Counted from the first letter of the stretch, positions 14,490-18,579 are shown. The stretch: 39,612 nucleotides of DNA from Deltaproteobacteria bacterium UBA796 (GCA_002296975.1 DBIS01000240.1:1-39612), one strand, 5' to 3'. The notes: generated by a model not told the origin, from the sequence alone. Made by a program: numbers and translations.

Positions 14490-15347
14490 TTAGGGCGCCG
14501 ACGACTTGGGCTTTAAAGCGAGGCGAATCTCTGTCTTATTCCGGAGTGGAAGCACCGTGACCACCTCGCCCACTGCCGTCACAGCGTCCAACCACATCTG
14601 GGCCCGCGTGCTTTTGGATGACAGCCGGTCAGCCACGACCAAACTCTCAAAATGTGCCACCTCACCGGCAACAACCGCTGCCCGTGTGGCTGCTTGAGCC
14701 TTGGCGTGCTCGACCTGTTCAGCCGCTTGACCACGAACTTCAGGGATGCGTTTAGATGCATAAGCCTCGGCGGCCAATGCCAAGGTTTCACGGTCGCCAC
14801 GGGCGGAGGATACGTCGTTGAATGCATCGAGGACCGCAGGTGGCGGGCTAATCTCGCGCACCTCCACAGCATCGATACGCAAGCCTGTGTGGGTGCGATC
14901 TAGAAGCGCCTGAGCACGTGTTTCAACAGCACGCTGAAGTGTTCTACGCCCCGTCGTCAGCAAAATGTCCACCTCCATCGTGGCCACAATATCTTTGGTG
15001 ATGGCCAACACCCCCGCAATCAGGGTGGACTCTCCGTCGACCATCCCCAGCTGGTACACCACCGGGTCTGCCACATTGTACTGAATCACCAAGTCCACAT
15101 CGATCAGGTTGGTGTCGCCGGTCAACATTCGCACTGGTTTGGGGTCTGCCCGTCGGACCTCACTCACATCCACAAGCTCATGGGCCTCGATGGGTGAAGG
15201 CAACCGAAAGCCCAAGCCGGCATTTAGGGTGCGATTTACCTCACCAAAGCGATAGACAACCGCCACATCACCAGCGTCAACGACAACGATTGTGCTCGCG
15301 CCCAATCCCGCCACAGCCACCAACCCAAGCCACTTGGCCATGGTCAT
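14490..15347 (-). CDS. SPFH/band-7 protein, HflK-like
   Basis: N-terminal TM anchor. HflK-type blocks: MLTGDTNLIDVDLVIQYNV, GLRIDAVEVREISPPPAVLDAFNDV, AEAYASKRIPEVRGQA. The start overlaps the upstream stop (ATGA). Confidence 0.8.
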   Translation of the reverse strand: MTMAKWLGLVAVAGLGASTIVVVDAGDVAVVYRFGEVNRTLNAGLGFRLPSPIEAHELVDVSEVRRADPKPVRMLTGDTNLIDVDLVIQYNVADPVVYQLGMVDGESTLIAGVLAITKDIVATMEVDILLTTGRRTLQRAVETRAQALLDRTHTGLRIDAVEVREISPPPAVLDAFNDVSSARGDRETLALAAEAYASKRIPEVRGQAAEQVEHAKAQAATRAAVVAGEVAHFESLVVADRLSSKSTRAQMWLDAVTAVGEVVTVLPLRNKTEIRLALKPKSSAP

Positions 15348-16207
15348 TTGATGCCCCCAGTCAGGGTTTTAAACAGCGGCCCATCGGAGTCTATGACCAG
15401 GACTGAGTCTTCATCGAGCAGGGCCTGGGCGGTCTGAAGCTTGCGCATAAAGATATAAAACTCAGGATCTGCATCATAGGCTTCACCATAAATCTTGGCG
15501 GCCCGACCATCCGCTCTCGCACGAACACCCATCGCCTCTTGGTCTGCACCCGCCAAAATCTCGGCGGCTTGACGGTCTGCCTCGGCCCGAATGGTGGCAG
15601 CGCGCTCCTCACCCTCTGAACGGTATGCATTGGCGATACGGCTTCGCTCGGCCCGCATGCGCTCATAGATCGATTGCTCGTTTTGAAGGGGCAAGCCTAT
15701 TGATCGCAGGCGCACATCGATGACCTCAATACCCAAACGGGACCGACCGACCTCGGCCACCCCAGACAATAAATCTGGTGGCAACATGGCCAGTTCGGCG
15801 CCTTCTGTGCTCATCAACTCACCAAACTCCCGATGACCCAGCGCAGAAGCAATCCGGCTGACCACCAAGTCAGAGAGCTGGGTTTCGGCGATACGCGCAT
15901 CACCCACAGCCTCCAAAAAGCGTTTTGGGTCGACCACACGCCATAATAAAAATGCCTCCACGACCAAATTTTTCTTGTCTCGGGTGAGCACTTCAGCAGG
16001 CGGAACAGCCAACAGGCGAGTGCGCTTATCGTAACGTTTCACCTGATGCAGCGGCCAAGGCCATCGCAGCTGAAGTCCAGGTTCAACCACAGTTTTCACT
16101 GGTTTTCCAAAAAATGTCACCACGACAACCTGCCGTGCATCCACAGTGTAAACACTGGCCGCCATTAAGGCTGCCAATACCACACCCATCACAAAGGGGC
16201 GTCTCAT
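15344..16207 (-). CDS. SPFH/band-7 protein, HflC-like
   Basis: Colinear by eye with E. coli HflC: TM anchor, VLTRDKKNLVVEAFLLWRV, IEVIDVRLRSIGLPLQNEQSIYERMRAER, DPEFYIFMRKLQ. ATGA overlaps at both ends. Confidence 0.85.
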   Translation of the reverse strand: MRRPFVMGVVLAALMAASVYTVDARQVVVVTFFGKPVKTVVEPGLQLRWPWPLHQVKRYDKRTRLLAVPPAEVLTRDKKNLVVEAFLLWRVVDPKRFLEAVGDARIAETQLSDLVVSRIASALGHREFGELMSTEGAELAMLPPDLLSGVAEVGRSRLGIEVIDVRLRSIGLPLQNEQSIYERMRAERSRIANAYRSEGEERAATIRAEADRQAAEILAGADQEAMGVRARADGRAAKIYGEAYDADPEFYIFMRKLQTAQALLDEDSVLVIDSDGPLFKTLTGGIK

Positions 16208-18579
16208 CGCACCTCCAAAACATTCGGGTCAATGGGCCAAAGCCCTTCATCATCCAGCCACACCCGCACACCTGCGGGCACAACATACAAACGGAGCGGT
16301 CCGAGCCGGTCTTCGATCATCTCTGCGGCGATTCGCTCACGGGTGAGTCGCCGATACGGTGCACCATTGCGAGCAACAGAGCGAAACCACACATCGTAGC
16401 CGACCGCCTTGGCCCGGATACGATGTGAATCACCTTGAGCGCCTAGCACTTTCGCGACCGCCAAGCCGCGACTGCGCGGGATGAGGCCTGCCGAATAAGC
16501 CTCGGCTTGGTTTATCCGGGCCTTGCGTTCCTCGTCCGCACTGATAACGTCCAAAAATGAGGCCACAACAGGCGCCGGAACCCCAGCGCGTTTGAGGTGA
16601 ACCCCATCGATGGACACACCAAGCCCGGCGATGTCTGCCGCAGCCTGGGTGGCAGCGAGAACTTTGGCCTCGATCATGGCACGACCGTGGGTGAGCAAAG
16701 CGTCCTGATCAGCGTGCGCCACAACCTGAACCATCGCGGCTCGGGCCATGACCACCAAGGCCGCCTCGGCATCGGAGACGCCATAAGCATGGGCCTGGGC
16801 ATCGTTGACCCCGTACCGCAAAACGGCCGAAAGACTAATGATGGAGGGATCGCCAGTGAGCAACACCTGCTCACCCAAAACCAGATGTTTGGAGGCGCCG
16901 ACGTCAATCTGAGTAATGGTCTCAATCGGGGGGGGAAAATGAAATAAGAGCCCGGCACCTTGGGACTGTCGAACCGGTGCCCCAAAGCGCTCGACGATAC
17001 CCACATGGCCGATACCGACCACAGAAACACCACCGCCCAACCACAAGGCCAAAAGGACAACCCAGCGATGGCGATAAGCGAGCAGTTTGCTCACTGGCGC
17101 CTCTATCCGCCCATGTCCAGGTCTTGCACTCGCACCGGTGCCGCTTACAGCTGAGAGCACCGCGATGCCCCCACATAAGCCCAGCAAAAGGTTGGCCACC
17201 TCGGTGAGCAAGGCCGATAAACCATGACCGATCCATCCGAAAAATAAGGCCAAAGCCAAAATGATCAGCACCAACTGAAACACCGGGTGAGTGTCGCGGT
17301 CATCAGCAGCCTCGCCAGCCGCGCAGTAACGGTCCAAAGCGAGCACACCGATCAAGGCCAGGGAAAAACCCAGGGATGATGAGGGCTCCATACTGCCCGC
17401 AGCCTGTACCACCGACCACACAACCAAAGCGCCAAGCGCCGCGCCAAGCCAGCGGGTGAGGGATGTGAATCGGCCGTCCAAAAGCGAAGAGGCCGCCGCC
17501 GGCCCAAAACGAGCCAGCGAGCATAGACCCAATAAGGTCACGAGCGGGGCCACAGACCAGCCGCCAGACATCGCGCACACCGCACCGAGGTTCAATAAAA
17601 CCAAGCCGAGGCCGGCCCGAAATAAGCGACTGTTGCGTAATTCTACCGGGAGAAGAGCATCAAGTTCAGCCTCCGCTGAGTCGTGATCACCCCGCTGGGT
17701 CACCGCGTACAGCACCCCAACCCCGGCCAAAGCACCCCCGATCCATCCAATGGGAGCGAGCTGCTCCCCATACACAACCAAACCCAAGGTGGTCGCGAAC
17801 AACACCTCGCTCAAAGACAGCACCGCAGCCATACCCGCAGACACTTTTTTCATGCCGAGGTTCAGCAGATAAAAAGGAATATTGGTGCAAATGATGGCCA
17901 GCCCAAAAATCCAGACCAGAGAGGCAGGAGGCACGATAAAGCCGCCAAAGACCACGGCCACCACGGTCAACAACACAGCCGCCACGGTCCAAGCCACAAA
18001 GAGCGTGCCCAAAATAGGCGTCTCTTGTCGTCGGGTCATGCGGGTCAAAACGAGCACACCCGCGTAGCCAATAGCGGAGACGAAGGCTAAAAAGTCACCG
18101 AGTAAAAACCGCGAAGAGGCAAAGTGCGAGACCTGAAAAAGAGACACGCCCGAGAGCATCGCTACACCAAAAAGCGCGATTCCCGCACCGGTCACCGCTG
18201 CGGGGCCTGAGCGCTCTTTGAACAACCAAAACGCTAAAGGGAAAACCATAACGGGGGCGAGGTTGTGCAAAAATATGGTGTTGGCAACCGTGGTAAATGC
18301 GTAGCCTCCCACAAATGTGGAGGATGCAACCGCGAGGGCCAAACCCAGCCAAGCGCCCAGCTTTAAGGTGGTGGCATCGGGTTTGAGCGCTGCGGTGCCC
18401 CCCTCCCGAAGCATCGCGGTGATGGCAAAGACCACCGCGACGAAAATCGCCCGCCATGCCGCCACCCCAAGAATCGGTGCTGCGGCAGCGCGAGTGAACA
18501 CCGCCATCATCGAAAAGGCGAACATCGCCGCCAGAACAAGCAGCACTGGACGCGATGTAAGCGACCTTTCTGCTGGCAT
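16204..18579 (-). CDS. Fusion protein: DMT/EamA-type permease (N-terminal) + extra TM region + HflK-like SPFH domain (C-terminal)
   Basis: 791 aa. The first ~300 aa are a 10-TM EamA-like region, followed by ~200 aa with further TM helices and a TM anchor (WVVLLALWLGGGVSVVG). The SPFH domain follows: VGIVERFGAP..., LLTGDPSIISLSAVLRYGV, GVSIDGVHLKRAGVPAPVVASFLDV, AEAYSAGLIPRSRG. AGGAGG RBS lies upstream. Confidence 0.8.
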   Translation of the reverse strand: MPAERSLTSRPVLLVLAAMFAFSMMAVFTRAAAAPILGVAAWRAIFVAVVFAITAMLREGGTAALKPDATTLKLGAWLGLALAVASSTFVGGYAFTTVANTIFLHNLAPVMVFPLAFWLFKERSGPAAVTGAGIALFGVAMLSGVSLFQVSHFASSRFLLGDFLAFVSAIGYAGVLVLTRMTRRQETPILGTLFVAWTVAAVLLTVVAVVFGGFIVPPASLVWIFGLAIICTNIPFYLLNLGMKKVSAGMAAVLSLSEVLFATTLGLVVYGEQLAPIGWIGGALAGVGVLYAVTQRGDHDSAEAELDALLPVELRNSRLFRAGLGLVLLNLGAVCAMSGGWSVAPLVTLLGLCSLARFGPAAASSLLDGRFTSLTRWLGAALGALVVWSVVQAAGSMEPSSSLGFSLALIGVLALDRYCAAGEAADDRDTHPVFQLVLIILALALFFGWIGHGLSALLTEVANLLLGLCGGIAVLSAVSGTGASARPGHGRIEAPVSKLLAYRHRWVVLLALWLGGGVSVVGIGHVGIVERFGAPVRQSQGAGLLFHFPPPIETITQIDVGASKHLVLGEQVLLTGDPSIISLSAVLRYGVNDAQAHAYGVSDAEAALVVMARAAMVQVVAHADQDALLTHGRAMIEAKVLAATQAAADIAGLGVSIDGVHLKRAGVPAPVVASFLDVISADEERKARINQAEAYSAGLIPRSRGLAVAKVLGAQGDSHRIRAKAVGYDVWFRSVARNGAPYRRLTRERIAAEMIEDRLGPLRLYVVPAGVRVWLDDEGLWPIDPNVLEVR

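Follow-up and report, generated by a model that had tools for sequence, protein, structure and literature searches.

What would a bacterium do with a permease of the drug/metabolite transporter (DMT) superfamily that is joined, in one polypeptide, to an SPFH domain of the HflK type, and that is encoded in one operon with two further SPFH proteins? The question is raised by a stretch of 39,612 nucleotides from Deltaproteobacteria bacterium UBA796 (GCA_002296975.1 DBIS01000240.1:1-39612), referred to here as the window, and all coordinates below are counted from its first letter. I show that the three genes form a conserved Myxococcota operon, in which a permease-SPFH fusion with 17 transmembrane (TM) helices is followed, in the same orientation, by HflC-type and HflK-type proteins with one TM helix each. 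With a probability of roughly 0.45, I read their products as a periplasmic ring of the HflK/C kind, to which a DMT permease is tethered and which acts jointly with an enzyme of the sulfatase family.

The fusion gene (18579..16204, minus strand) encodes a protein of 791 residues, in which its open reading frame (ORF), Pfam, AlphaFold2 and clusters of homologues delimit a DMT/EamA permease, a bundle of six TM helices, an anchor helix of the HflK type and an HflK-type SPFH/coiled-coil domain that is predicted to be periplasmic. It is followed by the gene for an HflC-type SPFH protein of 287 residues (16207..15344, minus) and by that for an HflK-type SPFH protein of 285 residues (15347..14490, minus), each with a single N-terminal TM helix. 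Both junctions are four-base ATGA overlaps, which read on the minus strand as gcgATGAgac and caaATGAcc, and G-rich stretches resembling Shine-Dalgarno sequences (GGAGG, GGGGG) lie 4-6 nucleotides 5' of each ATG, within the end of the preceding gene. A scan for promoters and terminators gave signals no higher than shuffled expectation.

The three SPFH domains can be told apart by family models and by their matches in the Protein Data Bank (PDB). Pfam places EamA in two stretches of the 791-residue protein (1.2e-20) and Band_7 (PF01145) at residues 520-694 (1.4e-18), and the HflC-type and HflK-type proteins match Band_7 at 3e-26 and 4.4e-20, respectively. Among the NCBIfam models, the 287-residue protein scores 179.7 bits with TIGR01932 (hflC), above the curated equivalog cut-off of 134.4; with TIGR01933 (hflK), which has a cut-off of 159.4, the 285-residue protein falls 1.2 bits short at 158.2, and the C-terminal third of the fusion stays below at 99.4. 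Searches of PDB sequences aligned residues 479-767 of the fusion with residues 63-343 of Escherichia coli HflK (phmmer), and returned E. coli HflC for the 287-residue protein (1.7e-36) and E. coli HflK for the 285-residue protein (1.5e-21). By sequence typing the paralogues are thus K, C and K in operon order. The first-pass annotation of this DNA had described a long permease-SPFH protein followed by an HflC-like and a second HflK-like gene with ATGA junctions, and each of these features is borne out by the reading frames, the family and PDB matches and the junction sequences, as well as by the count of 10 plus 7 TM helices given below.

Three parts can be distinguished within the fusion. Residues 1-298 (17686..18579, minus) make up the EamA/DMT permease, with ten TM helices and both ends on the cytoplasmic side according to Pfam, hydropathy and Foldseek. 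Residues 299-503 (17071..17685) form the six-helix bundle, flanked by short cytoplasmic helices. The remainder, residues 504-791 (16207..17070), is the HflK-type part and consists of TM17, which is the counterpart of the single TM helix of HflK, the SPFH beta/alpha domain, a coiled-coil helix and a tail. The hydropathy profile of 117 aligned homologues has 17 peaks, of which ten lie within the EamA part and seven beyond it. An AlphaFold2 model built on a 91-sequence alignment (mean predicted local distance difference test score, pLDDT, 89.2; predicted TM-score, pTM, 0.64) has the same order: ten DMT-fold helices, a short cytoplasmic helix, six TM helices, a further cytoplasmic helix, TM17 and the SPFH domain, ending in a coiled-coil helix of 70 residues (669-738), a helix at 740-759 and a flexible tail. 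In Foldseek, the C-terminal part finds E. coli HflK chains first (7vhq_E, 9cz2_XA, 7wi3; E 1e-11 to 6e-9; 268-277 columns), and then stomatin, QmcA, prohibitin, erlin and flotillin. The alignment with HflK covers the whole chain, coiled coils included, and the HflK-type module of the fusion is therefore complete. The fusion departs from the HflK/HflC family in having 17 TM helices instead of one. The N-terminal part resembles YddG (5i20, TMt 0.75) and LicB (7paf and 7b0k, TMt 0.80-0.83), with further matches to the triose-phosphate translocator TPT (5y78) and to SLC35B1 (9grz).

Folded on its own, the bundle between these two parts is predicted with confidence (pLDDT 91, pTM 0.86), and Foldseek found no match for it in the PDB at E <= 0.001. 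Two candidate identities were rejected: a CDF zinc transporter fold, whose best Foldseek match (E 0.1, TM-score about 0.4) was judged not significant, and a third EamA repeat, for which hhalign comparisons with each repeat came back empty, a weak test given that the genuine repeats barely detect one another. A profile search of 1.84e9 representative proteins recovered 26 representatives of the bundle, of which all full-length ones are fusions of 750-840 residues that carry it at about 295-520; no other architecture containing it was found among the representatives searched. By this confinement to the fusion, the tripartite architecture is a single invention of this lineage.

On which face of the membrane would the SPFH domains lie? 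The loops of the fusion show a strong positive-inside bias, with lysine and arginine summing to about 22 on the N-terminal side and to about 3.5 in the alternate loops. Together with 17 TM helices, this puts the N-terminus in the cytoplasm and the SPFH domain in the periplasm. The two small proteins have basic residues on the N side of their single TM helix, and the SPFH domains of all three paralogues are accordingly predicted to face the periplasm, as those of E. coli HflK/C do. A fused domain on the opposite face from its partners would have spoken against the joint assembly envisaged at first pass; helix count, charge bias and AlphaFold2 place it on the same face. The region coding for the 17 helices also coincides with the maximum of AT skew (0.445, at 17001-18000), which is a compositional consequence of T-rich hydrophobic codons on the minus strand rather than a separate feature.

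Among 5.8 billion proteins searched, homologues of the fusion fell into 131 clusters, and the 120 listed are 39-75% identical, nearly all 750-850 residues long, and carry both Pfam domains; a few shorter members look like fragments. When each species was represented by a single genome, the scan placed the fusion in 51 loci, all from metagenome-assembled genomes. Where genome titles are informative they read Myxococcota or Deltaproteobacteria, and the others ("uncultured Enterobacterales" and the like) look like placeholders for third-party bins. The fusion is known only from uncultured Myxococcota. The search by domain architecture that the first-pass annotation had proposed thus yields an EamA plus Band_7 protein in at least 120 clusters and 51 species-representative loci. 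That annotation was aware of no characterised permease-SPFH fusion, and my literature search likewise found no relevant paper on an EamA-SPFH or EamA-Band_7 fusion. Databases label members of the family either "EamA family transporter" or "membrane protease subunit HflK".

When the proteins of the window were compared with all ORFs of 56 loci, the fusion gene, the HflC-type gene and the HflK-type gene stood in this order and on the same strand in 39 of the 39 non-redundant loci that hold all three, with stop/start overlaps of 1-8 nucleotides at most junctions in gene calls from independent assemblies. The plain HflK-type gene is retained beside the fusion in every lineage, and its family co-distributes with the fusion. 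Because the flanking genes differ between lineages, the trio is kept by selection and not by recent common descent alone. Median identities to the window over 34 loci outside its own clade are highest for the EamA domain (62%), followed by a sulfatase-family enzyme of 489 residues (59%), the HflC-type protein (58%), the HflK-type protein (48%) and the fused SPFH domain (42%), and are lowest for the six-helix bundle (32%), which is the fastest-evolving part and behaves like a spacer. The EamA domain also has many invariant polar residues, and its standing as the most constrained part argues, on sequence grounds, for a functional transporter that is specific for its substrate.

The enzyme in this ranking is the most consistent extra partner of the operon, and was missing from the partner list of the first-pass annotation. 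In 30 of the 35 other loci with enough downstream DNA, a PF00884 gene of about 489 codons lies directly 3' of the HflK-type gene, often with overlapping stop and start, and members of its family occur together with the fusion on shared contigs. The copy in the window (6207..7673, plus strand; 488 residues) is 52-66% identical to the co-operonic orthologues. Pfam and the comparison of orthologues identify it as a member of the alkaline-phosphatase superfamily, predicted to be periplasmic and held by an N-terminal TM anchor. The metal-ligand motifs are invariant (D71, D320/H321, H328, D332/H333), as is T111 at the nucleophile position, in the motif W-T-L-P-S-H; at the aligned position of the 34 orthologues the formylglycine motif C/S-x-P-x-R was not found. 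Its best PDB matches are S1 sulfatases, and it shares with type I sulfatases the PF00884 scaffold and the metal-ligand motifs but differs from them in its nucleophile position. Since threonine replaces the formylglycine motif, the enzyme is probably not a sulfatase. I take its motif to resemble the T-F-P-N-H of nucleotide pyrophosphatase/phosphodiesterases (NPP). As a separate observation, the window copy alone among the 34 orthologues has threonine in place of the otherwise invariant His115, close to the Thr111 nucleophile (WTLPSTMS against WTLPSHMS).

How might these four proteins work together? In the reading that I prefer, the three SPFH paralogues would co-assemble on the periplasmic face into an alternating ring or dome like that of HflK/C, in which HflC-type subunits would alternate with HflK-type ones and the K positions would be shared by the plain HflK-type protein and the fusion. 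Shared occupancy fits because every lineage keeps the plain gene beside the fusion; by my own geometric reasoning, retention of both K-type genes is what would be expected if a ring made of 17-helix subunits alone were sterically or functionally unsuitable. Such a ring would hold at least one DMT permease in a fenced patch of the inner membrane, and the TM-anchored threonine-nucleophile metalloenzyme would most likely act on the cargo of the permease or on lipid head groups of the patch. In this way the module would link transport with chemistry in a confined part of the periplasm, and FtsH may additionally sit inside the enclosure. The covalent tether of the permease to an HflK/C-type ring, as already proposed at first pass, is physically consistent with the predicted topology; where the permease would sit relative to the ring is a conjecture, and the accompanying phrase "gated transport rather than protease regulation" I treat as an interpretation.

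Several points weigh against this arrangement. By rough geometry, twelve subunits of 17 TM helices would crowd a 24-mer ring, and any stoichiometry is a guess. I infer the co-assembly of the three paralogues from the K, C, K typing and from operon linkage, and the pTM of the fusion leaves the placement of its TM bundle relative to the SPFH domain uncertain. The only specific NCBIfam model that the EamA domain matches, TIGR00950, gives 64 bits, short of its cut-off of 230, and thus names no substrate. In the clade of the window the sulfatase-family gene lies outside the operon, in the window itself about 6.8 kb away on the opposite strand and adjoining a radical SAM gene, and two loci (L003 and L044) are without a sulfatase-family gene after the operon. 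Finally, the score of the HflC-type protein above the HflC equivalog cut-off is compatible with an ordinary role in modulating FtsH.

That last point leads to the main rival, in which the operon would encode the ordinary FtsH-modulating HflK/C complex of the organism, and the fusion would be an additional paralogue of HflK through which a permease enters the cage that contains FtsH. There the permease would be subject to quality control or regulated proteolysis, or the metabolite that it transports would tune FtsH. I regard this as unlikely, though it is the alternative to be taken most seriously, and it is compatible with the tethering ring, the two not being mutually exclusive. The HflC score and the narrow miss of the HflK-type protein both speak for it, as do the labels of NCBI and JGI, which call members of the family "FtsH protease activity modulator HflK", and the order of the fusion (K) and the C-type gene, which mirrors canonical hflK-hflC. 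Sulfatase-fold periplasmic domains are moreover used in FtsH-linked envelope sensing by YejM/LapC, to which there are weak superfamily-level matches here. The window itself, as the first-pass annotation had remarked, yields no family match to ftsH or NfeD in the larger ORFs scanned, and there is no room for an NfeD gene inside the operon because its genes overlap. Nor does any of the 56 loci have an FtsH-like ORF within 10 kb on either side. This absence, although it counts against an FtsH partner, says little, because in E. coli, too, ftsH lies apart from hflKC, and local absence is thus not counter-evidence. Against an ordinary FtsH modulator it also speaks that the fusion, the HflK-type protein and the sulfatase-family protein share their distribution, as a dedicated set would. 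Arg191 of HflK has been reported as an FtsH contact (PMC12048511); in an alignment of E. coli HflK with both K-type proteins the numbering put no arginine at 191, but the mapping is unreliable and no conclusion was drawn from it.

A second alternative gives the 17-helix part a role towards lipids, as an anchor, sensor or flippase that would, together with the enzyme, remodel lipid head groups in a microdomain fenced by the SPFH proteins. Inner-membrane enzymes with a sulfatase fold and a threonine nucleophile, such as LtaS and EptA/MCR, do act on lipid head groups (the matches here are weak), and the DMT superfamily includes the lipid-linked sugar flippases ArnE/F. Parts of the literature link SPFH proteins to lipid microdomains, and genes for a glycerol-3-phosphate dehydrogenase and an acyltransferase are found elsewhere in the window. 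The nearest folds of the permease, however, are solute carriers (YddG, LicB, TPT and SLC35), and no lipid-synthesis gene is consistently linked to the operon. The sulfotransferases, methyltransferases and aminotransferase encoded nearby have no signal peptides, and a soluble metabolite fits them equally well. Thus a purely lipid-directed function seems improbable to me.

It is less probable still that the fusion acts alone, with its SPFH domain forming a homo-oligomer or an autoregulatory lid, and that the HflC-type and HflK-type genes adjoin it only through their history of duplication. Homo-oligomeric SPFH rings do exist, as in stomatin and QmcA, and the pTM of the fusion carries no information on partners, but a three-gene order that stays invariant, with overlaps, in 39 loci of 39-75% identity despite reshuffled flanks is difficult to reconcile with mere adjacency. 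The fused domain is furthermore of the K type, and the structurally characterised HflK of E. coli hetero-oligomerises with HflC.

The weakest alternative, that a frameshift or an assembly error merged a permease gene and an hflK gene into the 791-residue ORF, can be dismissed as next to impossible: a short metagenome contig from a low-GC marine relative (L057) does hold the gene in two pieces, but its break is a single-base frameshift within TM8-9 of the EamA domain, off the domain border and followed in frame by the expected sequence, all other homologues are uninterrupted, the six-helix linker is confidently folded and conserved, and the surveys of clusters, species representatives and operons recover a two-domain protein of the same length in at least 120 clusters, down to 39% identity, and in 51 loci. 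The frameshift in that contig lies in a T/C run (ttt tat ttc tga) at 2590-2620 and is either a sequencing error or a sign of a pseudogene.

Returning to the tethering ring, several known systems resemble parts of it. The HflK/HflC-FtsH complex of E. coli (7vhp, 7wi3, 9cz2) likewise has K-type and C-type paralogues encoded side by side, and its subunits, like the plain ones here, have one N-terminal TM helix, a periplasmic SPFH domain and a long coiled coil, with matches over the whole chain. That 24-mer, however, is built from two paralogues, whereas there are three here, one of them a K-type subunit extended by 16 TM helices, among them those of an entire DMT permease; and the conserved operon partner here is a sulfatase-family enzyme, no link to FtsH having been found. 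Human stomatin (9zd2, 9z7u), which shares the SPFH fold, offers a likeness in function, as an SPFH oligomer with a channel or transporter in a fenced patch: its dome encloses AQP1 and UT-B, non-covalently (PMC12407830). It differs in being homo-oligomeric, cytoplasmic in face and eukaryotic, whereas the tether here is covalent, in a ring that would be heteromeric and lie in the periplasm. The SPFH-NfeD operons, of which E. coli QmcA-YbbJ (8z5g) is an example, also match in fold and also pair a bacterial SPFH protein with a dedicated, co-transcribed membrane partner, but here there is no NfeD, and the partners are two SPFH paralogues and a sulfatase-family enzyme. YddG (5i20) and LicB (7paf, 7b0k) have the same two-repeat DMT fold of ten TM helices (TMt 0.75-0.83) as stand-alone chains of about 280-290 residues; in the fusion, seven more helices and a periplasmic SPFH domain follow.

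Do the surrounding genes tell what the permease might carry? Upstream and co-directional with the operon are genes for a lipoprotein of the sulfatase family (19579-21240, minus; 553 residues) and for a protein of the DDAH/arginine-deiminase fold (18628-19578, minus), separated by 0 bp, the latter ending 48 bp before the fusion gene. The pair may be co-transcribed with the operon, in which case the transcription unit would run from 21240 to 14490. The same arrangement occurs in loci L001/L002 and L008; L006 and L007 have the upstream sulfatase of the 553-residue type, with no arginine-deiminase-like gene detected. The DDAH-fold protein scores 70 bits to dimethylargininase, far under the cut-off. 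The 553-residue PF00884 protein, which carries the lipoprotein signal LVTIFG|C, is a paralogue distinct from the 488-residue enzyme (60-100 bits between the two); it reads F-T-L-A-S-L-T-A-I-L-T-G-R where sulfatases have C-x-P-x-R, and judging from this motif is probably not a formylglycine sulfatase.

On the other side the operon converges with plus-strand genes (7726..14482) for a B12-binding radical SAM protein, a GyrB-ATPase-methyltransferase fusion, a methyltransferase and two sulfotransferases. In many loci genes of the same types, together with that for the DDAH-fold protein and further sulfatase-family genes, are found again near the operon, their order and orientation shuffled, and the window holds all of them at about 6.2-21.2 kb. 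This company suggests that the compound whose pathway the permease serves is methylated and/or sulfated. Neither the pathway nor the metabolite could be named from the sulfotransferase, methyltransferase, radical SAM, DDAH-fold and aminotransferase genes, of which none reached a curated family cut-off except for the generic aminotransferase model PRK08637. Models of defence systems in PADLOC matched none of six cluster proteins, and a role as an anti-phage system was set aside for this reason.

Some of these neighbours deserve comment in their own right. The GyrB-methyltransferase fusion (9369-11456, plus; 695 residues) joins the N-terminal ATPase and transducer domains of GyrB, which score 450 bits to PRK05644 over model positions 7-399 of 641 and are without the Toprim domain or the tail, to a class-I SAM methyltransferase, and such a GyrB43-methyltransferase fusion is an unusual find that has no explanation so far. 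The next gene (11408-12214, plus) encodes a stand-alone methyltransferase paralogous to the fused one, and many loci have both genes close to the SPFH operon. The two sulfotransferase ORFs (11994-13256 and 12950-14482, plus) appear, as listed, to overlap by about 300 nucleotides, which is a result of longest-ORF calling; their motifs for binding 3'-phosphoadenosine-5'-phosphosulfate (IGTERSGSNLL and SSSRGGSS) lie well 3' of the listed starts, and neither protein has a signal peptide. Elsewhere in the window, a CbbQ/NorQ-type AAA ATPase gene (3532-4344, minus) overlaps one for a 766-residue protein with a C-terminal VWA domain (1232-3532, minus), the two forming a MoxR/VWA chaperone pair of the usual kind that shows no obvious connection with the SPFH operon, and a second B12-binding radical SAM protein is encoded at 31479-32954 (minus).

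If the tethering ring is accepted, a bolder extension suggests itself, which I consider doubtful: a closed periplasmic dome with covalently attached permeases and a TM-anchored threonine-nucleophile hydrolase would amount to a membrane-bound reaction chamber, to which a metabolite would be delivered or from which it would be taken, and in which it would be processed apart from the rest of the periplasm, independently of FtsH. Whatever its contents, the system is a real, conserved and uncharacterised one of the HflK/C type, and its novelty lies in a covalent DMT permease, a lineage-specific six-helix bundle and a dedicated periplasmic enzyme. Each of the two database labels of the fusion family hides the other half of the protein, and an annotation as HflK/HflC need not mean an FtsH modulator by default. 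SPFH proteins (HflK/C, stomatin, prohibitin, flotillin and erlin) have recently been shown to form closed domes over membrane patches, and the contents and purpose of these domes are debated. A natural, conserved covalent fusion of a transporter to a cage subunit, with two partner subunits and an enzyme, provides a system that is defined genetically, has a fixed client and allows its topology to be predicted. The permease-SPFH operon of the Myxococcota therefore offers a direct test of compartmentalised transport by SPFH cages, and would help to settle what such cages enclose.

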